Shown piece by piece: positions 1 to 38,804 of a DNA stretch of 64,000 nucleotides (positions are counted from its first letter, which is position 1; each line of letters opens with the position of its first letter). This DNA comes from a bacterium (GTDB lineage: Bacteria; Hydrothermota; UBA3073; JACQXS01; JAQTXJ01). The stretch covers positions 282,775 to 346,774 of the forward strand of contig JAQUPX010000001.1 in NCBI GenBank assembly GCA_028716385.1, written 5' to 3'. The position numbers and the translations under genes were made by a program. Under the pieces are notes generated by a model. The model did no database searches and was not told the origin of the DNA. It saw only the letters and a program-made list of their open reading frames with translations.

Positions 1-552
1 GTCTCAGGAGAAACAGGCGGCGGATTTATTATTGTAGGGATGACATCCTCTTTCGGGATAGGAACTCCCGGTTGTCCTAATGTCTATCTAATCAGGATAA
101 ATTTTTCAGGTGATACTTTATGGACAAGGGCTTATGGCGGGACTGATTTTGATGGGAGCACTTCAGTTCAGCAGACTTCCGACGGCGGGTTTGTTATTGC
201 AGGATGTACATTGCATCCCGGGACACTCAACCAAGATGTCTATCTTATCAAGATTAAACCAGAACCGGGTATAGAAGAAAAATCAAAAATCAAATCACCG
301 CCAGGGCGGGATGTCGCTACGCTCCAAATCCTAAAAGGAAAGATTTGTTTATCCGTTCCGAATAACGAATATACTAATACACTAATAACGATTTATGATT
401 TAACAGGTAGACTTCAAAGCACTGTCTATTCAGGTACATTAACTAAAGGTAATTACATATTCACACCTAACATTCACAAGAGTGGGGTATATTTTGTAAA
501 ACTAACTAATGACAATATTAAACTAACACGGAAATTAGTTCTAATAAAATAA
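1..552 (+). CDS. T9SS-secreted repeat protein, 3' fragment (start lies upstream of window), with Por/T9SS C-terminal sorting tail
   Basis: Frame open from nt 1 to TAA at 550-552; repeat units (GGFxIxG...DxYLIK...GDTLWT) like CDS 44209-45618; last ~80 aa match the tail shared by 17 other proteins here (KIxLSVP...IYDLxGRL...GxYxFTPNIxKSGVYFVxL...KLVLIK). Confidence 0.6.
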   Translation, partial: VSGETGGGFIIVGMTSSFGIGTPGCPNVYLIRINFSGDTLWTRAYGGTDFDGSTSVQQTSDGGFVIAGCTLHPGTLNQDVYLIKIKPEPGIEEKSKIKSPPGRDVATLQILKGKICLSVPNNEYTNTLITIYDLTGRLQSTVYSGTLTKGNYIFTPNIHKSGVYFVKLTNDNIKLTRKLVLIK

Positions 553-559
553 AAGAAAT

Positions 560-1642
560 ATGAAAGAACTTGCTCTCTTATTTTTTATTACTTTAAATTC
601 TACAAACAACGGCATTGCTAAGACTTATCAAAACTCTGAAGCAAATGGGAAATATATTGCAGGTATTCATTTTCCCGAAAACCGGTATAACAAAAAGTTC
701 TCGCTTCCTTCATTGGATACCGTTTACTCTTTCCCAACGCCGGGAACATGGCCGGGAGGCTTAGCCTGGGATGGAACACATTTTTGGCTTTCGGATAATG
801 ATGCACTCTATATTTATAAACTTACTGCTACCGGGGTTGTAGATACATTCTTCCCTGAACCTGCCTCAGCCGGAGGGCTTACCTGGGACGGTTCGCACAT
901 TTGGTACGTAAGCGAACAAGACGCCAAATTATTTAAACTTGACCCGTCAACCGGAGCAGTAATGTCAACTTTCAACCTGCCTGCCTTTGGTCAGTCTGAC
1001 CCTAACTCCTGGGGAATTGCATGGGATGGCACTTATTTCTGGCACAGCGAGTATAACGGAGCCTCCTCAATAATATATAAACTTGACTCCGGAAATGGAA
1101 ATGTCATATCTTCATTTACAGTGCCATATGGTTTTATATTGGGTATAGTCTGGTTAAATAATTATCTTTATGGAGTTGATTGTCATTCTTTTAAAATTTA
1201 CAAAATAGATACTAACAGTGGTTCTGTAGTAGATAGCGGCGATTGGCCACTCCCTTATGCTTTGGGCCTGGCACGGAAAGATTCTTGCTGGTGGGGCGTC
1301 AGTAGCAAAATCCCGAGCGGAAATCAACGAGTATATGAGTTATGCGGTGAACTTTCGGGAGTTGAAGAAAAAAACAATGAACACTTATCAATAATGAAAA
1401 ATTGTCCTAATCCATTAAATAAAAAAACAATCATAAGTTATTGCCTCGTTTCCGGAACAGCCGTATCGTTAAAAATTTATGATATAAACGGGAAAGTAGT
1501 CAGAACGCTAATAAACGAAGAAAAACAAGCCGGAAATTATAATGTTAACTTAGATGCTCAAAACTTACCTGCAGGTATCTACCTCGCCAGACTTAATGCC
1601 GGCGAATATAAACAAACAATAAAAATGATTGTTGTGAAATAA
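560..1642 (+). CDS. secreted repeat (WDG[TS][HY][FI]W) propeller-like protein with T9SS C-terminal tail
   Basis: 360-aa ORF; four spaced G(L/I)(A/T)WDGxxxW repeats; C-terminal LKIYDINGKVVRTL...GIYLARL...IVVK tail. Confidence 0.55.
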   Translation: MKELALLFFITLNSTNNGIAKTYQNSEANGKYIAGIHFPENRYNKKFSLPSLDTVYSFPTPGTWPGGLAWDGTHFWLSDNDALYIYKLTATGVVDTFFPEPASAGGLTWDGSHIWYVSEQDAKLFKLDPSTGAVMSTFNLPAFGQSDPNSWGIAWDGTYFWHSEYNGASSIIYKLDSGNGNVISSFTVPYGFILGIVWLNNYLYGVDCHSFKIYKIDTNSGSVVDSGDWPLPYALGLARKDSCWWGVSSKIPSGNQRVYELCGELSGVEEKNNEHLSIMKNCPNPLNKKTIISYCLVSGTAVSLKIYDINGKVVRTLINEEKQAGNYNVNLDAQNLPAGIYLARLNAGEYKQTIKMIVVK

Positions 1643-1770
1643 TTGGCAGACCATTTTATCTGCCAAAGTCATAAAAATCTAAAATGACACTTGACAATAT
1701 GAAGCATAGATTGCATATATAAGGTATAGGATAAAAAGAGTTTTAGCATAAACAAAAAATAGGGGGATAG

Positions 1771-3651
1771 ATGATAGGTATTATTTTTCTTTTGTTAAAC
1801 ATAAACGTAGAATGGCAAACTGATTGGGTAGGCGGGTCAGGAGTTGCCGGGCCTGTTTCGGATTGGGGAAATAAATTCTGGCAATCCGACAGCGTTACAT
1901 ACAACATACAGGGGCAGGTGTCTCCAAGGGCATCAGGCACACCGAATTACACTAACTGGACAAAGCGCACGATTGATACTGATGCGAACATAGCTTATAA
2001 TGCAATATGGCCTGCCGATTTTGATAATGATGGCGATATGGATTTGGCAGGCTGGAAAAGCGTTAGCGGGCAGCTTGTTTTTTATAGAAATAACAGTAAT
2101 ACTTTTACTCAGGCAACTACTATGACCGGTCCGGTGGGTAGTTACTGGTCGTTTATGTATGGCGCTGACCTTGATAACGATACTAAAACGGATGTTGTAG
2201 TATGTGGAGGGGAGACGGGAAAAGGAGTATATTGGTATAAAAATAATGGCGGGTTTAGTTTTACTAAAAATACGATTACTACGGATAGTTGTTGCTTCTT
2301 TGTGGAAGGAGCTGACATTGATAAAGATGGTTATATTGACCTGGGGATTACAAGAGCATTTGTCGGCGGAGTAGAGATTTGGCATAATAATAAGAACGGC
2401 ACGTTTTCGCTCTGGCAAACACTGAGCGGGCTTGATTCCTGGAGGATTAAACTTGGAGATTTGAACGGCGACAGTTACCCCGATGTTGTAATAGGGGATG
2501 GGTATACCATTCTCTCTTCGGAGATTAGTTATAAAATATTTTTTAATGACGGCACGGGTCATTTTAATGTTGCCGCCACGGTTGCAAATGGCGCAAGCAC
2601 TACTACTAACGATGGCCTGTGGATTAGGGACGTGAATAACGACGGCAAAAACGATATAATTACTGCGCTTATAGATAACTCGTCCGGGCCAACCAGTGTT
2701 GCAATATACTGGTTTGAGAATGATGGCACGGGCGTAAACTATACTCAACATACCGTATATCCCGGGGGAAACATTTTTTACGGGGATGGCGGTTTCGCGG
2801 AAGATATAGATATGGACGGCAAAGCGGATGTCCCGACAGGATGGACACATCTTTCCTGGTTCAGGCAAAATAACTCCGATAGCTGGACTGAATACGTAAT
2901 TGACCAGCCTACGGATTTGTACACTCACTGGATTGTGCCGTTTAAAACAGAGTGGGGGCAATGTTTCGAGAGCGCAAAAATTAACTTGCTCGTTTCCTGG
3001 AGAGGGGCTTCTACGGGGTCATTTGTGTGGTACGAGAATAACATAGTAAGCGGTTTTGTTGCAAGCGCATCGCTTCAATCCTCTATTTTACGCTCCTCCG
3101 AATGCGATACTACGACATGGTTGCAGTTTGGTTGGAAAACTTGCTGTCCCTTTGACAACGCTATAAGTTTTCAATTCCGCAGCGGCAAGGATTACAGCAG
3201 TATAACAAGCGCTTTATGGAGCACGCCTGTCGTAGTAACTGCGGCGACTTCCATTGATTCGGTTGACCTTTCCTCGTATGTGCAGAATGGTAGCGGAGAT
3301 TCGCTTTTCCAGTATAAGGTTGGTTTTGTAGGCGCAAGCGATGCGGGCATATTGGATAGTGTGTGGGTAACCTACCATTGTGGAATTGCCGGAGTCGCTG
3401 AGAACAAGACAATCGGGAAAGAAGGACTTTCCATATATGCGAATAAAATTCTTTACTCTTTGCCAAAGGATACCGAAGTAAGGCTTGCTTTGTATGATGT
3501 GTCCGGGAGATTGGCAAAATTGCTTGATGAGGGCAAAAAGTCTCAAGGGGACTATACGGCAAACATTCCAAAACTTTCGAACGGAATCTATCTTGTGGTA
3601 TTAAAAGCAGGAGAGAAAATATTCTCCAAAAAGATTACGGTTATAAAATAG
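1771..3651 (+). CDS. FG-GAP/VCBS-like repeat protein with T9SS C-terminal tail
   Basis: 626-aa ORF; recurring DxDxDGxxDL/V motifs (DFDNDGDMDL, DIDKDGYIDL, DVNNDGKNDI, DIDMDGKADV); C-terminal sorting tail; GGGGGA purine-rich site upstream of ATG. Confidence 0.6.
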   Translation: MIGIIFLLLNINVEWQTDWVGGSGVAGPVSDWGNKFWQSDSVTYNIQGQVSPRASGTPNYTNWTKRTIDTDANIAYNAIWPADFDNDGDMDLAGWKSVSGQLVFYRNNSNTFTQATTMTGPVGSYWSFMYGADLDNDTKTDVVVCGGETGKGVYWYKNNGGFSFTKNTITTDSCCFFVEGADIDKDGYIDLGITRAFVGGVEIWHNNKNGTFSLWQTLSGLDSWRIKLGDLNGDSYPDVVIGDGYTILSSEISYKIFFNDGTGHFNVAATVANGASTTTNDGLWIRDVNNDGKNDIITALIDNSSGPTSVAIYWFENDGTGVNYTQHTVYPGGNIFYGDGGFAEDIDMDGKADVPTGWTHLSWFRQNNSDSWTEYVIDQPTDLYTHWIVPFKTEWGQCFESAKINLLVSWRGASTGSFVWYENNIVSGFVASASLQSSILRSSECDTTTWLQFGWKTCCPFDNAISFQFRSGKDYSSITSALWSTPVVVTAATSIDSVDLSSYVQNGSGDSLFQYKVGFVGASDAGILDSVWVTYHCGIAGVAENKTIGKEGLSIYANKILYSLPKDTEVRLALYDVSGRLAKLLDEGKKSQGDYTANIPKLSNGIYLVVLKAGEKIFSKKITVIK

Positions 3652-3811
3652 AAATAGTCCATAACAAAAAAAGTAGTTCCATTTGCTCCTGCGGTAAATC
3701 TTTCTGTATCTGCGCTCCCTGTTAAATTTTCTGTTTGTTATTTGTGCTTTTGTGGCGATATCTTTTCCCCTTGACAATTCCTGACAACTAATTATATTAC
3801 TCACTGAAACT

Positions 3812-4426
3812 ATGAGAAAACTTTTTATACTTTTAATTTTTAGCGCGCAAATCGCATCCGCGGATTCTTCCTCTTTTTCTGTTGATTTCCCAATAACTAA
3901 TATCCTAATAACCAATAATGTGTGTGATTCTTTTTCTCCCATCGGACTTAAGCCAAGCAATCTCATACTGACAGATTTATATGGATGTAAGAGTAATTAT
4001 TTGTTCACGGCAGTAAACGATTCTCAAAAATCTGTTACCTCTGCCGAAGATAGAACGTGGGTCGTAACCGAGCCTTTCGGCGGATTTTTAGGTGGAGTTT
4101 TGGGTGGACTTGCAGGCGCTATAATTGTTGCCTTGGCAGTGCCGTATAGCTTAGACAGTAGTGATCCCACAGTAAGGAACGGATTTCTTTTTGGGTATGC
4201 GGCCGGATGTGGGCTTGGTATCTGGTCAGCAGGGAAATGGATAGAAAGAGAAAAAGGAAATTTGATATGGACAATTTTTGGTAGTATGGCAGGAGAATTC
4301 CTTGCTTATGCAAAACTTACTTATAACAATAATCATGATGATTACAGTACCGGTATTTATTTAGTCATACCTGTATTACCTATAATATCAGGAGTAATTG
4401 CTTATCGTATGAGTTTTAAAAAATGA
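3812..4426 (+). CDS. glycine-zipper membrane protein, tandem paralog 1 of 5
   Basis: 204 aa; N-terminal signal-like segment, IGLKPSxL motif, WVVTEPxGG, Gly-rich hydrophobic segments, GIWxxGKxIEREKG, ends YRMSFKK; stop overlaps next start (ATGA). Confidence 0.55.
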   Translation: MRKLFILLIFSAQIASADSSSFSVDFPITNILITNNVCDSFSPIGLKPSNLILTDLYGCKSNYLFTAVNDSQKSVTSAEDRTWVVTEPFGGFLGGVLGGLAGAIIVALAVPYSLDSSDPTVRNGFLFGYAAGCGLGIWSAGKWIEREKGNLIWTIFGSMAGEFLAYAKLTYNNNHDDYSTGIYLVIPVLPIISGVIAYRMSFKK

Positions 4427-5040
4427 AAAAACTTTTTATCGTCTTTGTAATTTCCGTCACAATCATATCCGCCGATTCCCCATCTTCTTCTTTTGATTCC
4501 CAATTACCTGATTACCACTTAATTACTACAAGTTACAATCAATTACCATCCGGTATCGGCTTAAAGCCCAGCGACTTAACGCTAACTGATGCTTACGAAT
4601 ACAATCGTGGCAAGGCATTCGCATCATTTGGGGGGGAAGGGTATTCTTACGACGAATCTAACGGTGATGAAGATAACTCGTGGAAAATAACCGAACCTTT
4701 GGGTGGCTTGGCAGGAGGATTAATAAGCGCGCTTTTAGTAGGCGGGGCAGTAGGACTTGCAACACGTTCCAGTGATGATTGGAGCGGATTGATTTTAGCG
4801 TACTATGGTGTATTTATAGTATATCCGATAGGCGTTGGAACCGGCATCTGGATGACAGGGAAATACAGGGAAAAAGAAAAAGGGAACTTGTTGTTATCAA
4901 TATTGGGCGCTGCCGTTGGAACGATTCCTGCCTTTTTCTACCCGCCGTTATTACTTGTAACCCCTATATTATCAGGATTAACCGTTTATCGATTGACCCT
5001 TGGAATAGGAAATCCAAATTGTTGTTTAGGTTTGAAGTAA
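4423..5040 (+). CDS. glycine-zipper membrane protein, tandem paralog 2 of 5
   Basis: 205 aa; shares IGLKPSDLTLTDAYEY, ITEPLGGLAGG, GIWMTGKYREKEKG, YRLTLG with neighbours. Confidence 0.55.
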   Translation: MKKLFIVFVISVTIISADSPSSSFDSQLPDYHLITTSYNQLPSGIGLKPSDLTLTDAYEYNRGKAFASFGGEGYSYDESNGDEDNSWKITEPLGGLAGGLISALLVGGAVGLATRSSDDWSGLILAYYGVFIVYPIGVGTGIWMTGKYREKEKGNLLLSILGAAVGTIPAFFYPPLLLVTPILSGLTVYRLTLGIGNPNCCLGLK

Positions 5041-5047
5041 ATAAAAT

Positions 5048-5734
5048 ATGCATAAAATTATACTCTTTATAATTTTATTAGCCAGTAATCTTGCATTCGC
5101 AGACTCTTCGTCTTTTTCTGTTGATTCCCAATTACCTGATTGCCACTTAATTACTACAAGTTACAATCAATTACCATCCGGTATCGGCTTAAAGCCCAGC
5201 GATTTAACACTAACTGACGCGTGGGAAAACAGTTTTTTATTTTCAGCGTCAGGAGAAGACGATTTCACAAAAGAGTCTGATAAGGGATGTTGTACGCTTG
5301 GAAGTTTCAGTTTTAAAAAACCGAAAAACTCATGGGTAGTAACTGAACCTTTAGGTGGAATTGCAGGAATAGTGACAGGTGGATTAGCAGGGGCAATAGC
5401 GGGACTTATTTGTATATCTCCATTTATATCACACGATGGGAGTGAAGACTTCTTTGGCTTGTTAAATATATTATTTGGGGGGTTTGCTGTTGGCGCAACA
5501 ATAGGCATCCCAACCGGTATATGGTTAACCGGGAAGCATATAGAAAAAGAAAAAGGTAGCTGGAAGTGGGCAATGTTAGGCAGTGCTGTAGGGACCGGAT
5601 GTGTTCTCCTTATAAACAAAATAAACAATTCCCAAGAAGACATCTCTTCTACACTAGTGTTTCTTCCCCAAGTGTCTATTTCTTTACCCTTCATATCAAG
5701 TTTAGTTTTTTATCGTTTAAGTTTAAAAAAATGA
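5048..5734 (+). CDS. glycine-zipper membrane protein, tandem paralog 3 of 5
   Basis: 228 aa; same motif set (IGLKPSDLTLTDAWE, WVVTEPLGGIAG, GIWLTGKHIEKEKG, YRLSLKK). Confidence 0.55.
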   Translation: MHKIILFIILLASNLAFADSSSFSVDSQLPDCHLITTSYNQLPSGIGLKPSDLTLTDAWENSFLFSASGEDDFTKESDKGCCTLGSFSFKKPKNSWVVTEPLGGIAGIVTGGLAGAIAGLICISPFISHDGSEDFFGLLNILFGGFAVGATIGIPTGIWLTGKHIEKEKGSWKWAMLGSAVGTGCVLLINKINNSQEDISSTLVFLPQVSISLPFISSLVFYRLSLKK

Positions 5735-5820
5735 AAAATAGAATATCACAAAACAAAAAGTCGCTGAGCTCGCAGAGGATAAAAAAGTCGGACCGGGATA
5801 GTTGGATTTTTCGATGCAAA

Positions 5821-6510
5821 ATGAAAAAACTTTTTATCGTCTTTGTAATTTTTAGCGCAAATATATTCGCGGATTCTACGAATAATCAAATAACCGGGGT
5901 AGAGATGGGAGCACGTGCTCCTATCTACCCGCTTTGCTTAACGCCTTCAATCGGTCTTAAGCCAAGCGATTTAACACTCACCGATGCGTATGAATACAAA
6001 CGTGGCAAGGCATTCGCATCATTTGGAGGGGAGTATTCTGCTGATGAATCTGAATTAAACTGTTGTTTAATCAGGTGTTGTACGTTCGGGAAAATAGATC
6101 CCAGGATAGAAAGAACAAGAAGCTCATGGATGATAACTGAGCTTTTGGGTGGGCTTTTGGGGGGAGGTGTCGGCGGCGGTATAGTTGGAATAGCAGCAGG
6201 AAGCGCGTTCGAAGAGGAGAACCAGTACAAAATGGTAGTTGGAGCAATTATTGGATACTCAATTGGATGTGGAATTGGCATTTGGACAGCAGGTAGCCTT
6301 ATAGAAAAAGAAAAAGGGGATTGTCTATGGGCAACGGTAGGGAGTATTGTTGGAGCAACTATTATCTATTTTAAATTTCAGCATGACTATTATCGCAGTG
6401 CTACAAATACAATGTATGATTTCTGTTTGATTCCCATATTGCCTCTAATATCGGGATTAACTCTTTATCGCTTGACTTTAGGGAAAAGCTCTTTTTTAGG
6501 AATAAAGTAA
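5821..6510 (+). CDS. glycine-zipper membrane protein, tandem paralog 4 of 5 (start chosen by paralog alignment)
   Basis: Track ORF 5566-6510 has a 5' extension overlapping paralog 3; in-frame ATG at 5821 gives MKKLFIVFVIF..., the same N-terminus as paralog 2; same motif set. Confidence 0.5.
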   Translation: MKKLFIVFVIFSANIFADSTNNQITGVEMGARAPIYPLCLTPSIGLKPSDLTLTDAYEYKRGKAFASFGGEYSADESELNCCLIRCCTFGKIDPRIERTRSSWMITELLGGLLGGGVGGGIVGIAAGSAFEEENQYKMVVGAIIGYSIGCGIGIWTAGSLIEKEKGDCLWATVGSIVGATIIYFKFQHDYYRSATNTMYDFCLIPILPLISGLTLYRLTLGKSSFLGIK

Positions 6511-6512
6511 AA

Positions 6513-7199
6513 ATGACTTACAAACTTAAAATCCTAATCGTTTCAATAATTATATTTTCAGGAACAAACACCTTTGCGGATTCTTCCTCTTTTTCTGTTA
6601 ATTCTCCAATAACTAATACCCAATTACCTAATACCCTAATAACTAATTCCGTCTGTAATTTTTCTCCTTCCATCGGTCTCAAAGCGAGCGACTTGGTGAT
6701 AGCTGATGCGTGGAAAGGGAATTACTTATTTTTAGCTGAGTCTTCCGAAGGAGAGAACCCTGTAATTAAAAATGATGAATATTTGGGATGTTGTTTGGGA
6801 GGATGTACGTTTGGCAAACTAAATCCCAGGATAAAAAAACCGAAAAATTCCTGGGTGATAACGGAACCGTTGGGTGGGATTGCGGGTGGCGCTTTCGGTA
6901 TGCTTATTTTTGGCGGACTAGGCGTGGTTATTACTGGTTTTGAGGGGTATGATGTTGTTGGACTTTACGGTTTAATATTTGGATATATAATCGGAAGTCC
7001 GTACGGTATTTGGGCAACGGGCAAACTTATTGAAAAGGAAAAAGGATCTTTAAATCGTACAATGTTGGGAGGAATGTTGGGAGGATTAGGTGCAATGATA
7101 ATTTGCAATTCGAACGTAGATGGAGTGATTAAAACCGGTTCAATACTTGCCCTTCCTTTCGCAGGCGGGTTAATCGGTTATCGTATGAGTTTGAAATAA
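6513..7199 (+). CDS. glycine-zipper membrane protein, tandem paralog 5 of 5
   Basis: 228 aa; IGLKASDL, WVITEPLGGIAGG, GIWATGKLIEKEKG, YRMSLK. Confidence 0.55.
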   Translation: MTYKLKILIVSIIIFSGTNTFADSSSFSVNSPITNTQLPNTLITNSVCNFSPSIGLKASDLVIADAWKGNYLFLAESSEGENPVIKNDEYLGCCLGGCTFGKLNPRIKKPKNSWVITEPLGGIAGGAFGMLIFGGLGVVITGFEGYDVVGLYGLIFGYIIGSPYGIWATGKLIEKEKGSLNRTMLGGMLGGLGAMIICNSNVDGVIKTGSILALPFAGGLIGYRMSLK

Positions 7200-7223
7200 T
7201 GAAAAATTGTTTTTATCAGGGTA

Positions 7224-7245
7224 GGCGAAAGCCCTCGCTTTCGCC
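7224..7245. other. GC-rich hairpin (GGCGAAAG-ccctcg-CTTTCGCC) after the paralog array; no T-run
   Basis: Perfect 8-bp inverted repeat read directly; a second hairpin CCGCCTCAGGCGG follows at about 7267-7283. Confidence 0.4.
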
Positions 7246-7316
7246 ATACTCAACAAATTCGAGCGAGTCCGCCTCAGGCGGATCGAACCTACCCATAAAT
7301 TAAAAAAGGAGAAAAA

Positions 7317-8081
7317 ATGAAAACTAAAATTCCGCTAATCTTTTTCGCCATCATTCTTTTGACGCCTTCTTTTGCGCAGGGCGTGGAAAGCTATTTTCAC
7401 GTTTGTCCCCTTTCGCTTGACAAAGGAACGTCCTCATTCACGAGTATGGATTTTATGGAACTCGGCTTCGGCGCAGGTCCCGTAGTTCTGGGAACCGAGT
7501 TTATCGGATACAAAGTAGTGCCGGGTGGACATCAATATAACATAGAAATGTTCCCGTTAAAAGCGTATCTTATTTTATCCGATACAAAAAGAATGAAACT
7601 ATACGGGTACTTAAATTACAGCCCTTTCGGCGAAGGCGGGTCCGGGTATGAATATGAACTTGAGCGCGGGGATATTTCCGGGTCGTCTTCAGTGCATTCA
7701 CTTTCGCTGGGGATAGGTGCCACTTTTTATCACAGTATGCGATTGTGCTTAGGGTATTACAATTCTGAAGGACCATACAATCTTCGTTCCGGCAATGTTT
7801 ATGCTTCATTAGGAGTGGGGCTTCCCGATTTTTATGGAAAATGGAACCCCGTAAAGGGCGAGAAAAGCGCTCTTGCAAGAATAGGTTTGCCTACATTAGG
7901 CGGAGCGCTGGCGAGTCCACTTATTGGATTTGCAGGAACTCTTGTTTTTGGCGTAATAAAGGGCACCGGGAAAACTGGCATATATTATGACCCGGATGCA
8001 ATTCTAATAGCACTTTTGGGAGTGCCTGTCGGAGCGGTTATAGGACTTGCTTCCGGAATATATTGGAGCACCTGCAAATAA
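7317..8081 (+). CDS. secreted/membrane hypothetical protein with C-terminal glycine-zipper segments
   Basis: 254 aa; AGGAG 8 nt upstream of ATG; N-terminal signal-like MKTKIPLIFFAIILLTPSFAQG; C-terminal GxxxG-rich hydrophobic stretches. Confidence 0.5.
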   Translation: MKTKIPLIFFAIILLTPSFAQGVESYFHVCPLSLDKGTSSFTSMDFMELGFGAGPVVLGTEFIGYKVVPGGHQYNIEMFPLKAYLILSDTKRMKLYGYLNYSPFGEGGSGYEYELERGDISGSSSVHSLSLGIGATFYHSMRLCLGYYNSEGPYNLRSGNVYASLGVGLPDFYGKWNPVKGEKSALARIGLPTLGGALASPLIGFAGTLVFGVIKGTGKTGIYYDPDAILIALLGVPVGAVIGLASGIYWSTCK

Positions 8082-8230: not shown

Positions 8231-9073
8231 CTACTCAACGACCGTATTTACGCCTAAATACTTCAGATAAGAATTTATACGGTCTTTACGGGACGGCATT
8301 CTGTCTGCGAAATTCCCTTTAACGGCTCCTTTTGTAGGTGTGCCGACATAGAAATCCACGCCACGATTATTGCCTTCAGCCGTAATAAATCCTTTAATAT
8401 CGCCTGTCATATTTCCTGTTTGTCCGACTTGAGCTAATTTTCCGGAACAAGGAGCTATACCCAAATAAACATAATACCAGGTAGCTCCCGCGACATTAAA
8501 ATAAGATGCAGGTATTGTTAAACTATTGGAAACAGGATAAACTCGACGGTCTGGACAATTGCCAATAGGGCCAAGAGAGGAATCATTATATGCCGCTGCG
8601 TAATACCATACATCGTAATACTGAGCGTTTTGTGCAGCTGTCCAGGTACAGTTAACCTGTCCCAAAGCTAAAGTATCGTGATCCAGGGGAGCAGTGATTT
8701 TAATAGTGTCCGGGAAAGTAATACTTCCGCCGGAGTTGCCGAGATTAGAAGTAAGCTCAAGCGTATAGGTTGTTAAAGGAGTTAGCAATGTAGAATCCAT
8801 AAACGCTAAATATCCCGGAGCTATTCCTTCCTGCGGGAATACAATGCTGTTTGTGCCCCATTTAATTTTTACCTGTGACTGTGCCGTATCTGCGATTGGG
8901 TCAGAAAGAAATATAACCTGTGAGTAGCCTGTATACAAGAAACCAAGAATCATAGCCGCAGTATTCGTATCGTCTGTTGAACCTGTTGTAGTTGTTTTCT
9001 TGCAACCGGAGAAAACCGTAACTGCAACGACAAAAAGCGTAACTACCGAAAACTTTAAGTTTTTATTCTTCAT
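8231..9073 (-). CDS. putative lipoprotein
   Basis: 280 aa; N-terminal MKNKNLKFSVVTLFVVAVTVFSGCKK (signal peptide plus lipobox-like Cys); GGGGGAAAG upstream of ATG on minus strand. Confidence 0.5.
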   Translation of the reverse strand: MKNKNLKFSVVTLFVVAVTVFSGCKKTTTTGSTDDTNTAAMILGFLYTGYSQVIFLSDPIADTAQSQVKIKWGTNSIVFPQEGIAPGYLAFMDSTLLTPLTTYTLELTSNLGNSGGSITFPDTIKITAPLDHDTLALGQVNCTWTAAQNAQYYDVWYYAAAYNDSSLGPIGNCPDRRVYPVSNSLTIPASYFNVAGATWYYVYLGIAPCSGKLAQVGQTGNMTGDIKGFITAEGNNRGVDFYVGTPTKGAVKGNFADRMPSRKDRINSYLKYLGVNTVVE

Positions 9074-9376: not shown

Positions 9377-9760
9377 ATGGAAAAGAAGATATTAATTGTG
9401 GATGATGATTTCCATCTTATTACTCTCCTGCGGTTCAATCTGGAGAAAGCAGGTTACTCTGTTTGGTCTGCAAAAGACGGCAGCCAGGCGTTGAACATAA
9501 TGAAAAAAGACAAAATGGACCTCATAATTGCCGATATGATGATGCCGGTGATGGACGGTTTGGAATTATGTCGACGGGTAAAAAGCGAACCTTTATGGAA
9601 ATCCTGTCCCGTAATAATGCTCACTGCCAGAGTTCAGCTTTCGGACAAGGAAAAAGGAAAAGAGGCGGGAGTTGATGATTATATTACAAAACCTTTTCAG
9701 ATGAAAGAATTGCTTGCTTCGGTAAAAAACAATCTGAAACTATATTCAGATAAAAAATGA
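9377..9760 (+). CDS. single-domain response regulator (CheY-like receiver)
   Basis: 127 aa; ILIVDDD...MDLIIADMMMP..DGLEL...PVIMLTA...KEAGVDDYITKPF matches the receiver-domain pattern (acidic pocket, phospho-acceptor Asp, conserved Thr and Lys positions). Confidence 0.85.
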   Translation: MEKKILIVDDDFHLITLLRFNLEKAGYSVWSAKDGSQALNIMKKDKMDLIIADMMMPVMDGLELCRRVKSEPLWKSCPVIMLTARVQLSDKEKGKEAGVDDYITKPFQMKELLASVKNNLKLYSDKK

Positions 9761-10137
9761 ACAAACAAAGAAGAGAAATAGTAATAGGGAAGCATACTTT
9801 CTATCTTGATAAAAGCAATATATTACGCATAACCGTTGTCGGGGAACCGGGAAACGAAACCGTAACCGCAATGAAAACACTACATGAGAAACTCGATGAC
9901 ATAGCTAAAGACAAGGTGAATTTCCTTATAGACCTTAACCGGGCAGGAAAGCCCTCTCCGGAAGTAAGAAATATGGAGAAGTTAATTTACCGGCATAAGA
10001 AAGTTAGAAAAATCGCTTTCTGCGGCGCGCATCCTGTTGCAAAAGTACTTGCAAATTTTACTATATCCGTCACAAAAAAGAAAGATATGCAGTTCTTTGA
10101 CACTGAAGAAAAAGCCCTTTCCTGGCTGAAAAAATAA
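9757..10137 (+). CDS. small STAS/SpoIIAA-like protein, tandem paralog 1 of 4 (fold assignment tentative)
   Basis: 126 aa; shares with the next three ORFs IGKHTxxLxxxNIL...VxG...KVxxLxDL...KPSxExR...KKVxKIAxxGxxPVAKV...KKxxxFFxTxExALxWLK; start overlaps receiver stop (ATGA). Confidence 0.5.
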   Translation: MNKQRREIVIGKHTFYLDKSNILRITVVGEPGNETVTAMKTLHEKLDDIAKDKVNFLIDLNRAGKPSPEVRNMEKLIYRHKKVRKIAFCGAHPVAKVLANFTISVTKKKDMQFFDTEEKALSWLKK

Positions 10138-10149
10138 TAAAAAATGAAC

Positions 10150-10214
10150 AAAGAAAAAAAGATGTAAAATTTTTCAATACGAAAGAATCGGCAATCGTAT
10201 GGTTACGGGAATAA
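10150..10214 (+). pseudogene. 3'-terminal remnant of a fifth STAS-like paralog (internally deleted copy)
   Basis: 10150-10214 is near-identical to 10941-11004 (the last ~21 codons of paralog 3, ...KKDVKFFNTKESAIVWL(R/K)E*); ATGAACAAA at 10144 mimics the paralog-1 start but is out of frame, giving M-N-K-E-K-K-M-stop. Confidence 0.55.
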
Positions 10215-10226
10215 CGCGTAAAGGAC

Positions 10227-10613
10227 GTGAAAATGAATAAAGAAGAAAGAGAAATATTAATAGGAAAGCATACCGTCTGCCTCGGTGAAGACAATATATT
10301 ATATATAACTATTGTCGGAGACATTGACGAAGAAAAAATAGAGATATTGTTTGAAACAATTAGTAAACTTCTGGAGATGGGAAAAGGAAAAGTAAGCGTA
10401 TTAGTAAATATTAGCAAAGCCAAGAAGCCTTCTGTAAAAACAAGAAACCATATCGCACAATTCCATACGAATAAAAAGGTCGGGCAGATTGCCATTTTTG
10501 GACTAACCCCGGTTGCAAAAGTAATGTCGGCTTTCGCCGTAGGAATTACTAAAAAAAGAAATATAAAATTCTTTGATACAAAAGAATCGGCTCTTGCCTG
10601 GCTAAACGAATAA
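10227..10613 (+). CDS. small STAS/SpoIIAA-like protein, tandem paralog 2 of 4
   Basis: 128 aa; same conserved motif set; AAGGA upstream. Confidence 0.5.
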   Translation: MKMNKEEREILIGKHTVCLGEDNILYITIVGDIDEEKIEILFETISKLLEMGKGKVSVLVNISKAKKPSVKTRNHIAQFHTNKKVGQIAIFGLTPVAKVMSAFAVGITKKRNIKFFDTKESALAWLNE

Positions 10614-10617
10614 TAAA

Positions 10618-11004
10618 ATGGAAAAAGGGAAAAAAGAGTTTTTTATAGGGGAGAACAGATTATACCTCGGGGAAGATAAAATACTTTATGCGGATTTTTC
10701 AGGGGAACTTACCGTGGATATAATAAATTCGTTATACGATTTTTTTAATCTCAATAAAACCAAAATGATGAACGAAGGAAAAGTAAAGATACTTATACAC
10801 CTTAAGAATCCAAAGAAATCTTCTCCTGAAGCCAGGAAATTAACATATACGTTGAGTAAAGATAAAAATATTGGCAAAGTCGCCCTCTTGGGAATTAACC
10901 CGGTTACAAAAGTAATCGCCTCTTTCTTTATGGGAAATTCAAGAAAAAAAGATGTAAAATTTTTCAATACAAAAGAATCGGCAATCGTATGGTTAAAGGA
11001 ATAA
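10618..11004 (+). CDS. small STAS/SpoIIAA-like protein, tandem paralog 3 of 4
   Basis: 128 aa; same conserved motif set. Confidence 0.5.
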   Translation: MEKGKKEFFIGENRLYLGEDKILYADFSGELTVDIINSLYDFFNLNKTKMMNEGKVKILIHLKNPKKSSPEARKLTYTLSKDKNIGKVALLGINPVTKVIASFFMGNSRKKDVKFFNTKESAIVWLKE

Positions 11005-11017
11005 TGCATACAGAGAT

Positions 11018-11410
11018 ATGAAAATGAAAAAACAAGAAAAAGAAATATGGGCAGGGCAAAATAGATTATGTTTCGGAGAAGACAAAATACTTTACGCAAC
11101 TCTTGTCGGGGACCTTTCTGCGGAAATAGTGAATACGTTATATGTATTTTTCGAACAAAATAAAAATGAAAATATGGTTGACGGGAAAGTAAGATTTTTT
11201 GTAGACCTTACTAATTCAGGGAAACCTTCTATGGAAGCAAGAAAATTGACTTATGCGCTGAGTGAAAGTAAAGACATCGGGAAATTTGCCATAATCGGAA
11301 TGAATCCGGTTGCAAGGGTAATAGCGGCTTTTTTTATGGGAAATTCAAGAAAGAAAGGTATGAAATTTTTCAACACAAGGGAGGAAGCGCTTGAATGGCT
11401 AAAGAAATAA
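11018..11410 (+). CDS. small STAS/SpoIIAA-like protein, tandem paralog 4 of 4
   Basis: 130 aa; same conserved motif set; 3' end overlaps the kinase start. Confidence 0.5.
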   Translation: MKMKKQEKEIWAGQNRLCFGEDKILYATLVGDLSAEIVNTLYVFFEQNKNENMVDGKVRFFVDLTNSGKPSMEARKLTYALSESKDIGKFAIIGMNPVARVIAAFFMGNSRKKGMKFFNTREEALEWLKK

Positions 11411-12747
11411 TACCGTCAGACAAATTCAAAGAAATTACCTATAACAAGGAAAACCCTTTGCGCGATGAAACAATTATTCGTCTTAATAAGATGATTGAAA
11501 TTGTTATGAACGTGGCAAAAGGAATTTACTCCGAACAGGTTCAACTCTCGGATAAAAACGATGAGATTGATGCGCTTGGGATAGGTATAAATATGATGAT
11601 TGACGATATTAAAAAAAACGTTGAAAGAATCAAAAAAGAAAAAATTAACCTCGATAAACAAGAAAAAAGAAGAACTATAGAACTTAAAGAAGAACGGAAT
11701 AAATTCCACGCTACAGCCGAAAGCATATCCGACGGTATACTCGTGATAGACTTCAAGGGGAATATTCTAATCGTTAATTCGGCATTTGAAAGGTTATTTG
11801 GCATCAAAAAAGAACAGGTAACGGGACGACACGTGCTTGATTGTCTGGAGGATGTAAAAATTTTAGACCTTATAACCCGAAAATTAACAACAGGGCATGA
11901 ATATTATACGGAAGAACTTATAATCACGGATAGGGTAACCAACACAGAAAAAATCTTAAACGGACGAATATCTTCCGTCTTCAACCAGGCCGGAAAAAAA
12001 TTGGGAGCCGTAATAGTTCTGAGGAATATCACAAAAGAAAAAGAAGCCGAGAGAATAAAAAATGAATTTGTATCAAACGTGTCTCACGAAATCAGGACGC
12101 CCCTGTCTTCCATAAAAGGTTTCGTTGATACTCTTCTTATGGTTAAAGTTTCCGAGTCCGAACGTAAAAAGTTTTTAAACATAATCAAACAGGAATCAAA
12201 CAGGTTGAACCAGCTTATTACTGATTTGCTTGACCTTTCCCGTATTGAATCCGGAAGGGTAGAGCTTAAATTTGAACCCGTTGACGTTTTTCAAAAGTTG
12301 GAAGCCGTAAAATCGGAAATTTTAGGTAAAATCTCACGGAAGAAACTTTCTTTTGAAATAAAAGTGCCGGCTTCTTTGCCGCTGATAAAAGCCGATAAAA
12401 ATGCTTTGTTCCAGATTCTTATTAATCTTGTTAGTAATGCAATTAAGTTTACGGAAAAAGAAGGAAAAATTTGCGTGAAAGCGGAACTGTGCAACAAGAA
12501 AGAATGTGTCAAATTTTCTGTCCGGGATACGGGGTATGGAATAGAAAAACAATACCTGACAAAAATATGGGAAAAATTCTACAGGATTGAAACTTCTTCG
12601 CATAAAATCCCCGGAACAGGACTCGGGTTACCTATTGTTAAAGATTTGGTAGAAAAGCATAACGGGAAAATATGGGTAAACAGTAAACCCGGAAAAGGCA
12701 GTGTTTTTTACTTTACCATACCGGTTTTTACCGAAAGGAAAAAATGA
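11395..12747 (+). CDS. cytoplasmic sensor histidine kinase (PAS + HisKA + HATPase_c)
   Basis: 450 aa; no transmembrane segment seen; PAS-like region (ATAESISDGILVIDFKGNILIVNSAFERLFG); H-box NEFVSNVSHEIRTPLSSIKGF; ATP-lid motifs (LINLVSNAIKFT, VRDTGYGI, GTGLGLPIV). Confidence 0.85.
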   Translation: MAKEIIPSDKFKEITYNKENPLRDETIIRLNKMIEIVMNVAKGIYSEQVQLSDKNDEIDALGIGINMMIDDIKKNVERIKKEKINLDKQEKRRTIELKEERNKFHATAESISDGILVIDFKGNILIVNSAFERLFGIKKEQVTGRHVLDCLEDVKILDLITRKLTTGHEYYTEELIITDRVTNTEKILNGRISSVFNQAGKKLGAVIVLRNITKEKEAERIKNEFVSNVSHEIRTPLSSIKGFVDTLLMVKVSESERKKFLNIIKQESNRLNQLITDLLDLSRIESGRVELKFEPVDVFQKLEAVKSEILGKISRKKLSFEIKVPASLPLIKADKNALFQILINLVSNAIKFTEKEGKICVKAELCNKKECVKFSVRDTGYGIEKQYLTKIWEKFYRIETSSHKIPGTGLGLPIVKDLVEKHNGKIWVNSKPGKGSVFYFTIPVFTERKK

Positions 12748-17108: not shown

Positions 17109-18596
17109 TTACTTCACAACTACTATTTTCGATGTGCAGTTTTGTCCGCAAGCGGACAGTCTTGCGAGGTATACGCCGGAGGTAAACCCTGTCGGCGTCC
17201 ATTCTAATGTATATTCACCGGGAACCTTATTTGTGTTTAAAAGAGTTTTAACCAATTCGCCTGCAGTGTTATATATCCTTAAACATACATCGGAATTTTT
17301 TGGTATGGAGTATCTGAAAAGTAATTTGTGGTTAGAGAGTTGTGCATATAATCTAGGCGTTTCCCGAGAATAAACTTTTTCCTGAACACCGGCTATACAT
17401 CCTCCATCCAGGACTTTCAAAATTCCTGTTCCTCCGATTACCACTTCCAATTGCCCGTCCCCGTCTACGTCTCCGATTGAAGGGTCGCTGTCTCCGGCAG
17501 AACTATTGCCAAATTCCCATAGAAGAGTTCCGTCATTATTGAGTCCGCGTATTATTGTATCGTTAGAGGCAAATACTATTTCGGGTTTATCGTCACTGTC
17601 CAAATCGCCAATCGCAGGGCATGACCATATGTGACTTCCCGTTGCATAACTCCAGAGCACTGAGCCATCTTCACCGTTGAGAGCGTAAAAGTTGAAATCA
17701 TCGGAGCCAAATACTATTTCAGGTTTAGTGTCGTTATCCAAATCTGCAATCGCAGGGGAAGAGCGTACGGAACCTCCTGTCGTCGTGTAGCTCCAAAGTA
17801 AAGAACCGTCTTCTCCGTTGAGAGCGTAGAAATCGAATGAGCCGACAACTATCTCGAGTTTAGTATCGTTATCCAAATCTGCAATCGCCGGGGAAGCGCT
17901 AACTCCTATTGGATAACTCCAGATAAGCGAACCATCTTCACCATTAAGAGCATATAATTTATTGTCGCCAAGAACTACCTCAAGTTTAGTATCGTTATCC
18001 AAATCCGCAATTGCAGGCGAAGACCATATGTAACTTCCCGTTGCATAACTCCAGAGTACTGAGCCGTCTTCACCGTTGAAAGCGTAGAACGTATAATCCA
18101 GGGAGCCAACAGCTATTTCAGGTTTACTATCGTTATCCAAATCCGCAATCGCGGGGGAAGACATTACCCGATTTCCTGTCTTATAACTCCAGAGCAGGGA
18201 GCCGTCTTCAGTATTGAGGGCATAAAGTTGGCTGTCATAGGAGCAGACAACCACCTCGAGTTTAGTGTCCCCGTCTAAATCCCCAAGTGCAGGGCAAGAG
18301 CATATTTTACCCGACGTTGTATAGCTCCATATTACTGAACCGTTTTCTCCATTGAAATTATATATTTTATTGTCTATGTCATTACCGGAAATTATTTCAG
18401 GGATGTTATCATTATTTATGTCTACAATTGCAAATTTAGCGAATCCCTCGTTAGGGGTTTGCCATTTGATTCTCATAGAATCGGAAGTTAAGCATCCTTT
18501 GAGTTCAGGTTGAAAACCAGTATTTTGCAGGTCATGATGGAATTTCAGCCATTCTCCGGGCAAGGTCAAAAGGCAAATAAGAAATATATTCAACAT
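17109..18596 (-). CDS. propeller-repeat (PQQ-like / FG-GAP-like) protein with T9SS C-terminal tail; inverted paralog of 29316-30824
   Basis: 495 aa; repeating IADLDNDTKxEVVxGSxDxxLYALNGEDGSxLWSYxTG units; C-terminal sorting tail; N- and C-terminal regions about 80-90 percent identical at nucleotide level to 29316-30824 on the other strand. Confidence 0.65.
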   Translation of the reverse strand: MLNIFLICLLTLPGEWLKFHHDLQNTGFQPELKGCLTSDSMRIKWQTPNEGFAKFAIVDINNDNIPEIISGNDIDNKIYNFNGENGSVIWSYTTSGKICSCPALGDLDGDTKLEVVVCSYDSQLYALNTEDGSLLWSYKTGNRVMSSPAIADLDNDSKPEIAVGSLDYTFYAFNGEDGSVLWSYATGSYIWSSPAIADLDNDTKLEVVLGDNKLYALNGEDGSLIWSYPIGVSASPAIADLDNDTKLEIVVGSFDFYALNGEDGSLLWSYTTTGGSVRSSPAIADLDNDTKPEIVFGSDDFNFYALNGEDGSVLWSYATGSHIWSCPAIGDLDSDDKPEIVFASNDTIIRGLNNDGTLLWEFGNSSAGDSDPSIGDVDGDGQLEVVIGGTGILKVLDGGCIAGVQEKVYSRETPRLYAQLSNHKLLFRYSIPKNSDVCLRIYNTAGELVKTLLNTNKVPGEYTLEWTPTGFTSGVYLARLSACGQNCTSKIVVVK

Positions 18597-20172: not shown

Positions 20173-22224
20173 TCACCAAAAGAACAGATACCTCACCTTC
20201 GCAACGGCGACTCTATCCGTCAATTCCATATCGTCTTCGACGTTGTCTATGGTTTGGTTAAACGCCAGATACACCCACGACTTCGGTCTGAAGTTATAAG
20301 AAATAAGCGCATTAAATTTATGTATATGCGTATCGGTATTCGGCTCTGCGTATATCCTCAATTGCATATCCTTTGTAAGCGCATACTGTACGGTCGGCAG
20401 TAAAATCGAAGCTATTGCCACGCTATCATTATTCGGAGTCCATTCAAAAGTGTTTGACAGGACAAGTGAAAAACTTAAAGACGGATTGACTTTCCAGTCT
20501 ACAATAAAGTCATTCGTTCCGGTTGATGCAAAATACTTTTTCCTGTAATTAAAACCATAACTCTTATACCACACCTCTTCGTTTAAGACAAAAGCCTTGC
20601 TGAAATCGGTATATAAGCAAACGCTCAGACGGGAGTAATCATACTCCGTATTCATTTCATATCCTTTACCTTTGTAAACGTTTATGTGTCCCCCGTAATT
20701 ATTCTTAAAGCAAGGGCTGACGCGCGCGCTAATCCAATTCCCGCCCGGATTGCCGGCTTTTTGTGTTCCGCCTGCTCCCGCGCAAGCCACGAATTTACGA
20801 AAAGGTCCCTTGTTAAAAAATTGCGGTCCCGCCATAAGAGAATATATCTTGTACCCGACATACGGAGCAAACCCGATTTCCCCGACATCGAAACTTGTAT
20901 CATAATTTTCGTACCCTGCCAGCACCAGAAATTTCGGCGCATACCAATTCAGAGCTATCTCCTCCGCATACCCGCTGTCCGATTTCGCCACCTCTGCGGC
21001 ACATTGCAGTTGATGCGTTCGGAACATCCCGTCTATCCCCATTACTTTCTGGTTGTTAAAACTGCTGTCCCCGCTGACTCCCGAATAAGTAAACCCTATG
21101 TCCGAATTTTTCAGGATGCCCATTTTTATCCTTCCCACGGAGTATAAATTTCTAGGTTCAAACCAATCTTCTCCCGGCGAAATGCTGTCCGTGTACGCCG
21201 ACAACATTCCGAATTTTACTCTCCCCAGCGACCCCGTATATTTTGCCCCGCCCAAAATCGGGACTTCACCTTCGGGCAATTTTTTGCCTATCCTACGGGA
21301 ATAGAAAAGTGTTATCGGAGTGGCGAAGACTTCCTGCGATTCGATAAAAAACGGCCGTCTTTCGTCGAGATAAAGTTCGTACTCGGAAAGGTTAATCGTA
21401 TAAGGGTCTGCTTCTATTTGCGCAAAATCCGGCAGCATCGTAAGCGAAAGCTGCGACGAAGTAAACCCCCAACCGACGTCCAGTCCTGCCTGCGGGCGAA
21501 GGATTAAAGTATCTCTATCCTCAAGGGTCTTTCCCAATTCGTATCTTACAAGTCCCACGGGATAAACTTCAAGGTTCAGTCCCTGTCTGGTGTTCGGGAT
21601 TCCTTTGAGCGCTCCACTTCTGGAAACACGCATCCCTTCTACCTGTTTAAGGGGCGCCCACGATACGCTCTCGCTATTTTTTGAAATATATCTAAAGAAG
21701 TTGACGCCCCATTCATCGAGTCCTTGTTTAAACCGTAATGTTTTGAAAGGTATTTTCATTTCCGCGACATACCCGTATTTCGTAACTTTAGCCACCGAGT
21801 ACCAGACTCCGTCCCAGCTTACGTCGTCTGCTCTTCCGTCCTGGGAAATTTTTTCATCGTATTGCACGCCTGCGGCGTTCAGCATAAATTCGTAAGCAGT
21901 AGTTTTATCGCCAAAAGTATCGAATATAATTCCGACGTTATCTTCGTTATAGAAATAATCTCTCGGCACTTTTTTAATATTTAAGCTTTTCGGGTCGGCG
22001 TCAAAACACTTAAATGCGATATAAATATTTTTATCATCGCAACAGATGTAGACTTTAGTGGATTCGGAAGGAGACGCTCCCTCGTCCGGGTCACTCTGGA
22101 CGAAGTTTTGAACGGAGTCTGCGTTCTGCCAGACCGAGTCAATTTTTCCGTCAATAACCGGCGGAGTGGTAACTTTCGGTATGTTTACGACACTTCCAAG
22201 GCTTAAAAAAAGTAATAGCAACAT
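20173..22224 (-). CDS. predicted outer-membrane protein: N-terminal CBM9/DOMON-like domain plus C-terminal beta-rich region (DUF5916-like)
   Basis: 683 aa; signal-like N-terminus; DGKIDSVWQNA...IYIAFKCFD...DxVxIxFDTFxDxxTAYxF motif block; ends in aromatic ...RYLFFW as in many outer-membrane barrels. Confidence 0.5.
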   Translation of the reverse strand: MLLLLFLSLGSVVNIPKVTTPPVIDGKIDSVWQNADSVQNFVQSDPDEGASPSESTKVYICCDDKNIYIAFKCFDADPKSLNIKKVPRDYFYNEDNVGIIFDTFGDKTTAYEFMLNAAGVQYDEKISQDGRADDVSWDGVWYSVAKVTKYGYVAEMKIPFKTLRFKQGLDEWGVNFFRYISKNSESVSWAPLKQVEGMRVSRSGALKGIPNTRQGLNLEVYPVGLVRYELGKTLEDRDTLILRPQAGLDVGWGFTSSQLSLTMLPDFAQIEADPYTINLSEYELYLDERRPFFIESQEVFATPITLFYSRRIGKKLPEGEVPILGGAKYTGSLGRVKFGMLSAYTDSISPGEDWFEPRNLYSVGRIKMGILKNSDIGFTYSGVSGDSSFNNQKVMGIDGMFRTHQLQCAAEVAKSDSGYAEEIALNWYAPKFLVLAGYENYDTSFDVGEIGFAPYVGYKIYSLMAGPQFFNKGPFRKFVACAGAGGTQKAGNPGGNWISARVSPCFKNNYGGHINVYKGKGYEMNTEYDYSRLSVCLYTDFSKAFVLNEEVWYKSYGFNYRKKYFASTGTNDFIVDWKVNPSLSFSLVLSNTFEWTPNNDSVAIASILLPTVQYALTKDMQLRIYAEPNTDTHIHKFNALISYNFRPKSWVYLAFNQTIDNVEDDMELTDRVAVAKVRYLFFW

Positions 22225-22314
22225 AGTTTTCTATCTTTCTCTTTTAATGCAAAACATATCCGTTGTCAAAAAAACACCCTCAATTCTGTCCAAAATTCAT
22301 GAATCTTAGAATCT

Positions 22315-24177: not shown

Positions 24178-24224
24178 AGTTTTAACTAATTCCCCTCATC
24201 TCCCTATCCGCCTTATTCTTTTCT

Positions 24225-24651
24225 TTTAATCTCTCCAATCTATTACCAACCCTTGATTTATCTAGGGATGGTTATCCAGCTCTGCTGGAAAATCTCCAAT
24301 CCAAAATCCAAAATCTATTACTTGCCTGCCCCGTACATTTATTGCACAGGGGCGCTCACTTGGTAGCCGCAAGCTTTAGCTTGCGCCTGTCCACCTTTTG
24401 TTTTGGCGGAAAGCGGGGAAGAATCTCGTTTTTCCCCTTCGCCCTTTGCTCTTCTCGCTCCTCCGTATCTCCCCAATTCGCATTCCAAAATCTTTTTTTT
24501 CAGTATCTTTTAATTCCCCAATTCCTTCTTTTAATCCGTTCAATCCCCAATCCCTGCCTACCGGTCAGGCAGGCAAAATCTAAAATCTATTACCAGCCCT
24601 TGAGTTATCTAGGGATGGTTATCCAGCTCCGCTGTGGCTGGAAAATCCGCC
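24225..24651. repeat. repeat-rich intergenic region containing remnants of T9SS-linker coding sequence
   Basis: Two copies of CTATTACCxxCCCTTGAxTTATCTAGGGATGGTTATCCAGCTCxGCTG (about 24235-24290 and 24585-24640); AATCCAAAATCCAAAATC and CCCTGCCTACCGGTCAGGCAGGCAAAATC blocks match coding sequence at 33585-33625; GGTAGCCGCAAGCTTTAGCTTGCGC hairpin at about 24360. Confidence 0.45.
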
Positions 24652-29306: not shown

Positions 29307-29315
29307 AAGGGTAAG

Positions 29316-34407: not shown

Positions 34408-34414
34408 AACTTTA

Positions 34415-36040: not shown

Positions 36041-36048
36041 TTTATTTC

Positions 36049-38797: not shown

Positions 38798-38804
38798 AAT
38801 TTTC

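Follow-up and report, generated by a model that had tools for sequence, protein, structure and literature searches.

A tandem array of five glycine-zipper membrane-protein paralogs and its partner gene in a Hydrothermota genome

Among described proteins, the closest likeness to the genes analyzed here is found in the glycine-zipper envelope proteins, a group that covers Gly-zipper_Omp (PF13488), Gly-zipper_YMGG (PF13441) and Rick_17kDa_Anti or "glycine zipper 2TM" (PF05433), together with the SlyB/PCP-type lipoproteins; they form GxxxG-rich helical hairpins in the envelope and tend to pair the hairpin with a beta-rich domain. Here we describe a head-to-tail array of five genes for small glycine-rich membrane proteins and the partner gene that follows it, in a stretch of 64,000 nucleotides (nt) from a bacterium of the Hydrothermota (assembly GCA_028716385.1, contig JAQUPX010000001.1, positions 282,775 to 346,774; hereafter the window). 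The family formed by the array and its relatives shares the GxxxG-rich hairpins with the glycine-zipper envelope proteins, and its partner protein likewise joins such a hairpin to a beta-rich domain. Unlike them, the module of the family has four helices rather than two, has no lipobox and has much more hydrophobic helices, which suggests the inner membrane. None of PF13488, PF13441 and PF05433 matched at its gathering score, each being matched at E<0.01 by only 1–3 of 106 relatives. A second likeness is with the MamF-like/HOTT (DUF4870)/Tic20 superfamily of small integral membrane proteins in bacteria, which come in several paralogs, carry a conserved interhelical loop that is charged, and act together with glycine-zipper partners (PMC11628618). 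Small size, paralogy, a charged loop and glycine-zipper partners are shared with the present family; unlike that superfamily, 0 of 106 members match Pfam DUF4870 or Tic20, the organisms are others and there is no magnetosome context. The genes represent a rare membrane-protein family that is new, belongs to the general glycine-zipper kind and has a defined partner gene. The array and the gene behind it form one operon of five old tandem duplicates and a sixth gene with half a module.

The array, its module and the partner gene

The five genes lie consecutively on the + strand at 3812–7199 (Table 1), and their products are identical to the corresponding NCBI proteins; PHX21_00885 is a further family member elsewhere in the same genome. 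The products align end to end with pairwise identities of 34–49% and 34 invariant columns, and the family profile recognizes each of them with E values of 1e-73 to 1e-87 in a library of 1.84 billion proteins, far beyond chance. This bears out the view, taken in an earlier note on this DNA, of a head-to-tail array of five diverged small membrane-protein paralogs. In gene order, the first junction is a 4-nt overlap and the next three are gaps of 7, 86 and 2 nt, so that the spacing of 0–8 nt or overlap given in the same note holds for three of the four. The open reading frame (ORF) of gene 4 as delimited mechanically opens at 5566; the start that is homologous to those of the other copies, and that is annotated at NCBI, is ATG 5821, and the spacer between genes 3 and 4 is therefore 86 nt rather than 0–8 nt. 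No structure beyond chance was detected in this spacer.

All five paralogs begin with a standard Sec signal peptide with an invariant A-D-S site (AxA-type, signal-peptidase I type), in agreement with the signal-like N-terminus noticed earlier, and no lipobox or lipobox Cys, as in SlyB/PCP-type lipoproteins, is present at these five sites. The signal peptide is followed by a tail of about 70–95 residues, which was disordered in an AlphaFold2 model of paralog 3 (predicted local distance difference test, pLDDT, 45–57). The tail contains the best-conserved linear motif, the strand-like IGLKPSDLTLTDA, with a mean pairwise identity of 68%; the tails of genes 3–5 also carry a Cys-rich insert (GCC...C.FGK) just before helix 1 that is only 16% identical. 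The core, modelled from a 106-sequence alignment, consists of four predicted helices (residues 96–126, 135–164, 172–194 and 199–226 of paralog 3) with pLDDT above 90, and all four segments are hydrophobic and glycine-rich. Three parts of the core stand out as conserved, namely the opening of helix 1 (SW-x-ITEPLGG), loop 2 with 77% identity (GIW-x-TGK-x-IEKEKG) and the close of helix 4 (YRLSLK); loops 1 and 3 and helix 3 show identities of 5–22%. The alternation of conserved motifs with highly divergent segments that had been reported for these genes is real, the tail motif (IGLKP) at 68% and loop 2 at 77% contrasting with 5–16% in loop 1, loop 3 and the Cys-rich insert. The strongly conserved residues all map to one membrane interface, on the side that holds both termini.

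The individual motifs quoted in the earlier note fared unevenly. Those of the types W-x-[IV]-T-E-[PL]-[LF]-G-G and GIWxxG(K/S)x(I/R)E(K/R)EKG were found in 5/5 paralogs, whereas IGLKPSDLTLTDA is exact only in genes 2–4, genes 1 and 5 having a variant, and the YRxSLKK-type terminus is confined to genes 1, 3 and 5. Genes 2 and 4 end in YRLTLG plus an extension of 9–13 aa (amino acids) closing with LG(L/I)K, which in paralog 2 reads ...NPNCCLGLK. The C-termini of paralogs 2 and 4 and of the relative P0011 (...C(C)LG(L/I)K or ...FLGIK) echo the N-terminal IGLK motif. Three motifs define the family: helix 1 opens with W-x-[IV]-[TS]-E-P-L-G-G, loop 2 has G-I-W-x-T-G-K-x-[IVL]-E-K-E-x-G, and the C-terminus carries G-Y-R-L-[ST]-L. 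All three are present in 5/5 paralogs with minor substitutions and also in the 32 closest relatives. An internal duplication relating hairpin 1 of the module to hairpin 2 was not established (hhalign 34%). We infer that the tail, loop 2 (GKxIEKEKG) and the C-terminus lie on the periplasmic side of the inner membrane, because the signal peptide is cleaved and the number of helices, four, is even.

The further glycine-zipper protein that the earlier note placed downstream of the array is real and is a distant relative of the paralogs over its C-terminal helical hairpin. In a profile of five partner-type proteins, this hairpin aligned to helices 1–2 of the family (hhalign probability 84%, E 7.5e-6), and a paralog of the partner, P0121, ends in ...GFPLGYWATGKIL (GYWATGKIL), mirroring the GIWxTGK motif of the family, which makes the partner a fusion of a beta-rich domain and a half module. 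Its AlphaFold2 model, of low confidence (pLDDT 48.5), showed about 10 beta-strands between a signal peptide and two long C-terminal helices. Homologs of the partner were found in three further assemblies (49–71% identity), and extending the partner family added just one paralog, 25% identical, in the same genome. Adjacency of the partner to family genes is kept in the window and in L001/L002, L003 and L005. In the metagenome-assembled genome (MAG) GCA_028688815.1, a protein with a type IX secretion system (T9SS) tail comes first, then a single family copy orthologous to paralog 5, a transposase-like remnant of 133 aa and finally the partner; in the WC614 MAG the family gene before the partner is reduced to an N-terminal remnant of 66 aa, and on Logan contig L005 the partner is flanked by at least three short family members.

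The age of the duplications was assessed in pairwise Nei-Gojobori comparisons of six sequences, which also served as the check for diversifying selection proposed in the earlier note. The ratio of nonsynonymous to synonymous change (dN/dS) was 0.21–0.52 with a saturated dS of 1.0–3.6; the duplications are therefore old, and the copies show no overall excess of amino-acid change. On top of this old divergence, the 5' parts of the genes contain short tracts of high identity that indicate gene conversion. In addition to the two longest (Table 1), these comprise 59 nt at 85% identity between the 5' ends of genes 2 and 4 and 58 nt at 86% between genes 1 and 5, and the 5' part of paralog 2 is a mosaic with paralogs 3 and 4.

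Table 1. Features of the array locus in window coordinates
Feature	Coordinates	Strand	Description
Candidate operon promoter, sigma-70-like	3771..3798	+	TTGACA-16-TATATT, 11/12; ends 14 nt before the first start codon
Paralog 1 / PHX21_01315	3812..4426	+	204 aa; signal peptide, IGLKPSNLILTDL tail motif, four-helix glycine-zipper module, end YRMSFKK
Paralog 2 / PHX21_01320	4423..5040	+	205 aa; start overlaps the stop of paralog 1 (ATGA)
Gene-conversion tract, paralogs 2/3	4467..4603	+	137 nt, 88% identical to 5095-5231; genes overall ~60%
Overlapping tract, paralogs 2/4	4555-4637	+	83 nt, 86% identical to 5950-6032
Paralog 3 / PHX21_01325	5048..5734	+	228 aa; sequence modelled; Cys-rich insert before helix 1
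Paralog 4 / PHX21_01330	5821..6510	+	229 aa (NCBI P0002); eight Cys; C-terminal extension ...SSFLGIK
Paralog 5 / PHX21_01335	6513..7199	+	228 aa; 51% identical to its ortholog, the only copy in related MAG GCA_028688815.1
Intergenic region, paralog 5 to partner gene	7200..7316	+	predicted three-way hairpin fold, dG -35.9 kcal/mol, z -4.3, unique in the window
Partner gene / PHX21_01340	7317..8081	+	254 aa; signal peptide, beta-rich domain (~10 strands, residues 25-166), C-terminal two-helix glycine-zipper hairpin

Relatives and architectures of the family

The family is uncatalogued in the resources searched, in line with the earlier note, which could assign no known family. Scans of the five paralogs, the partner and the lipoprotein encoded downstream against Pfam, NCBIfam, PADLOC and PHROGs gave nothing at family thresholds, the best Pfam match of the window proteins being Gly-zipper_YMGG at E 0.52 (10.5 bits vs a cut-off of 28.9). 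Searches of PDB sequences with the family and partner profiles returned nothing below E 0.36, a Pfam scan of the 106 relatives gave scattered weak matches with no shared family, and no description of the family was found in the literature on glycine zippers with T9SS or with tandem paralogs. A word-indexed search of 5.8 billion proteins retrieved only the five copies themselves and one protein of a related MAG. An exhaustive HMMER profile search of 1.84 billion representatives gave 107 proteins at E<=1e-3, 28 of them at <=1e-10. A scan of genome contigs for further loci returned only the already known PHE49 contig, the first of two metagenome scans returned none and the second a single 1-kb contig, and no relatives were present among 2.9 million viral contigs.

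The relatives fall into a close and a distant clade. The close clade includes a protein of "Candidatus Stahlbacteria", which may point to a WOR-3/Stahlbacteria-like lineage of the FCB group (Fibrobacterota-Chlorobiota-Bacteroidota) as the source of the window. Members of this clade often open with M and 8–10 hydrophobic residues directly before the IG(L/Y/F)KP motif. Members of the distant clade, often of high GC content, open with a classical signal peptide, followed by a long linker of low complexity, the module and an extension at the C-terminus; this extension is at least 25 aa long in 46/76 members. In 34 of these 46 it closes, behind an alternating hydrophobic strand, with an aromatic residue (Phe in 31), giving a strand-like terminus that would be exposed on the side of the N-terminal tail. 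Four proteins (P0039, P0085, P0090 and P0092) contain two modules per chain, and three (P0018, P0028 and P0097) are fusions of a beta-rich domain with a full module; such fusions come after an LVIVD-repeat lipoprotein in L007 and L008. No homology was detectable between the beta domain of the partner and those of P0018 and P0028. Tandem arrays recur in unrelated genomes (L005, L010 and L014), and those of L010, with two copies, and of the distant-clade, high-GC L014, with four side by side, lack the partner. The four L014 paralogs (3637–6793; three on the + strand, one on the - strand) each end in ...GRW or ...ASW and have two SurA-like peptidyl-prolyl isomerase genes, as well as Ser/Thr kinase genes, a few genes away.

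Interpretation of the array

The inferred function that we favor, with a probability of roughly 0.4, is that of a membrane scaffold, in which the paralogous modules would assemble through glycine-zipper packing into a hetero-oligomer of the inner membrane that anchors the periplasmic tails and the beta-domains. The modules may pack side by side through their glycine-zipper faces, and the partner could join the assembly through its homologous two-helix hairpin, which would keep its beta-rich domain at the periplasmic face. In the paralogs, the N-terminal strand motif (IGLKP) may dock on the edge of a beta-sheet in the partner domain or in another envelope protein; in the distant relatives, this role could be taken, by beta-augmentation, by the C-terminal beta-hairpin ending in Phe (a ...VRVRF-type strand). 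The array would then be a source of diversified subunits from which a membrane anchor or scaffold is built for components of the periplasm and the cell surface, rather than a toxin-immunity or lysis device. The model is proposed because the recurrent multi-copy arrays, the double- and half-module proteins and the beta-domain fusions fit it, by a logic of the Rosetta-stone type.

Several observations weigh against a scaffold. The oligomer is putative and the structure prediction was of a monomer only, the docking role of the tail motif is speculative and the tail itself is predicted to be disordered, and the "beta-rich domain" of the partner is a secondary-structure assignment only, taken from the model of pLDDT 48.5. 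The inferred topology breaks the positive-inside rule, with putative cytoplasmic loops 1 and 3 acidic or neutral and the Lys/Arg residues sitting in loop 2 and the C-terminus on the putative periplasmic side. Many close relatives lack a classical signal peptide and have just the 8–10 hydrophobic residues at their start. The partner occurs in only four genomes of one narrow clade, most family members being found without it, and fold searches with the module gave nothing significant that hints at an activity. If the scaffold exists, the four-helix glycine zipper, which also comes in half-module and double-module forms, would represent a membrane-anchor module not yet catalogued and used by poorly known bacteria of the FCB group, whose genomes are packed with T9SS-secreted surface proteins. 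The family would then merit a Pfam "domain of unknown function" entry and could give a handle on envelope organization in uncultured organisms.

An alternative, which we consider unlikely, is that the four-helix proteins are T9SS accessories acting as cargo-specific receptors, holders or anchors at the inner-membrane/periplasmic face. Their strand motif would then engage, by strand pairing, the C-terminal domain (CTD) of the cargo, a beta-sandwich. In L009, L010 and L007, a family gene lies 13–76 nt upstream of a T9SS cargo gene on the same strand, cargo being otherwise sparse there: 13 nt before a C25 peptidase cargo gene in L009, 18 nt before a Metallophos cargo gene in L010, and before a BNR/sortilin cargo gene in L007, where PorV is encoded three genes upstream. 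In L013 a cargo gene is one gene away from the family gene. Between the two family paralogs of L010, an 81-aa ORF (8559–8804) copies the N-terminus of the downstream Metallophos cargo, and the duplicated unit therefore comprised a family gene and the 5' end of a cargo gene; in P0081 the N-terminus of a Metallophos cargo is fused to the four-helix module. The array also directly follows cargo genes in the window, L001 and L003, three Por_Secre_tail genes preceding it in the window. However, a CTD profile built here identified 18 CTD-bearing ORFs in the 64-kb window, and because of this number the adjacency of array and cargo in the window is expected by chance and carries no weight, while for the independent loci p is ~0.01–0.02 as a rough estimate only. 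Furthermore, no cargo gene adjoins the family genes of L008, L012 or the distant high-GC L014, and the neighboring cargo types are mutually unrelated. The module resembles no known T9SS component, with no Pfam or NCBIfam match and only neighboring genes matching Por_Secre_tail or PorV. The T9SS membrane proteins of PorP/SprF type are likewise encoded beside individual cargo genes; they are outer-membrane beta-barrels, unlike the present module, which is an alpha-helical bundle with no sequence relation to them. The linkage of the family to T9SS cargo is thus suggestive at best.

Within the window, T9SS cargo is unusually dense at 1–3651, 17109–18596, 29304–48601 and 55289–63999. It includes a near-unbroken minus-strand run at 31.7–48.6 kb, which is broken by a Schlafen AlbA_2/HATPase_c_4/HTH gene (41872–43299, - strand), and a 2117-aa CTD protein at 55289–61642.

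The earlier note had compared the array with immunity cassettes, in which each diversified paralog would neutralize a different membrane-targeting toxin or bacteriocin. The comparison has a basis in small four-helix membrane proteins with hypervariable loops in a tight tandem array, since the immunity proteins of pore-forming colicins and polymorphic toxins are also small three- or four-helix inner-membrane proteins that sometimes form tandem diversified arrays, and a YcaO/radical-SAM/ABC (ATP-binding cassette) cluster possibly making a modified peptide lies ~13–20 kb downstream. That cluster is, however, separated from the array by unrelated genes, and no toxin, polymorphic-toxin, LXG, Rhs, contact-dependent inhibition (CDI), type VI secretion system (T6SS) or bacteriocin gene adjoins the array in the window or in any of the nine contexts examined, so that the search for a cognate toxin gene came back empty. 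Pairwise dN/dS values of 0.2–0.5, obtained at saturated dS, do not exceed 1 and show no overall sign of positive selection. Conservation is strongest in surface loops, unlike the pattern expected of diversified specificity determinants. Unlike immunity arrays, moreover, all array copies have signal peptides and share a conserved non-toxin partner gene; single-copy members and beta-domain fusions exist, and there are no PADLOC matches. An immunity function is therefore quite unlikely.

The downstream cluster itself (20173–27731, - strand) looks like one for a ribosomally made, modified peptide and consists of a CBM9/DUF5916 gene followed by genes for YcaO (22315–24177), an ABC exporter (24652–26370) and a radical-SAM/SPASM enzyme (26367–27731). 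In related MAGs, genes of the DUF5916, radical-SAM and ABC types are retained close to the partner gene.

The other comparison made in that note was with pore or holin cassettes, and we likewise consider it distinctly improbable that the glycine-zipper helices line an oligomeric pore as part of a holin-like channel or a stress or solute channel. Glycine zippers are reportedly typical of channel-forming helices (Kim et al. 2005, cited in PMC11628618), the modules are multi-copy and oligomer-prone, and a conserved Glu opens helix 1. Yet there are no endolysin, spanin, lysis or phage genes near the array or in the nine contexts, no PHROG match, no relatives in viral contigs and no viral fold match at E<0.28; a signal peptide with a long tail is atypical for holins, and no match to known channel families was obtained. 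The present outcome replaces the tempting but unsupported label of an immunity or holin cassette with a defined family, topology and partner gene and with testable interactions.

Highly improbable, lastly, is the proposal that the module is a bacterial Tim17/OEP16-like four-helix protein handling proteins at the inner membrane, for example by receiving or holding T9SS cargo through strand pairing of the tail motif with the CTD. No significant fold or profile similarity was found to the Tim17/Tim22/Tim23/OEP16 (PRAT) fold, which includes the complex I subunit NDUFA11. If the proposal is true, type IX secretion in WOR-3/Stahlbacteria-like bacteria would have an accessory layer that is lineage-specific and encoded beside cargo genes, and the module might be related to the Tim17 family or resemble it in structure as a prokaryotic analogue; the bacterial origin of that family is described as unsettled (PMC11628618).

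Regulatory candidates and neighboring genes

The candidate promoter upstream of the array (Table 1) is a consensus match only, and the total of such sites in the region was not above that in shuffled sequence, making it weak evidence. An Rfam scan of the window detected no RNA family. At the position that corresponds to the hairpin-forming spacer between paralog 5 and the partner, the related MAG (L001 1859–2260) has the 133-aa remnant mentioned above, which resembles a RAYT/IS200-type transposase as judged by eye only.

Convergent with the partner gene is a gene on the - strand (8231–9073) for a 280-aa predicted lipoprotein (…FSGCKK), which had no match in Pfam, NCBIfam, PADLOC or PHROGs. Beyond it, the window contains a second tandem paralog array (9377–12747), made up of four SpoIIAA-like/STAS genes (PF11964/DUF7793) of ~127 aa at 9757–10137, 10227–10613, 10618–11004 and 11018–11410. 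This second array is bounded by a response-regulator gene (9377–9760) and a PAS histidine-kinase gene (11395–12747).

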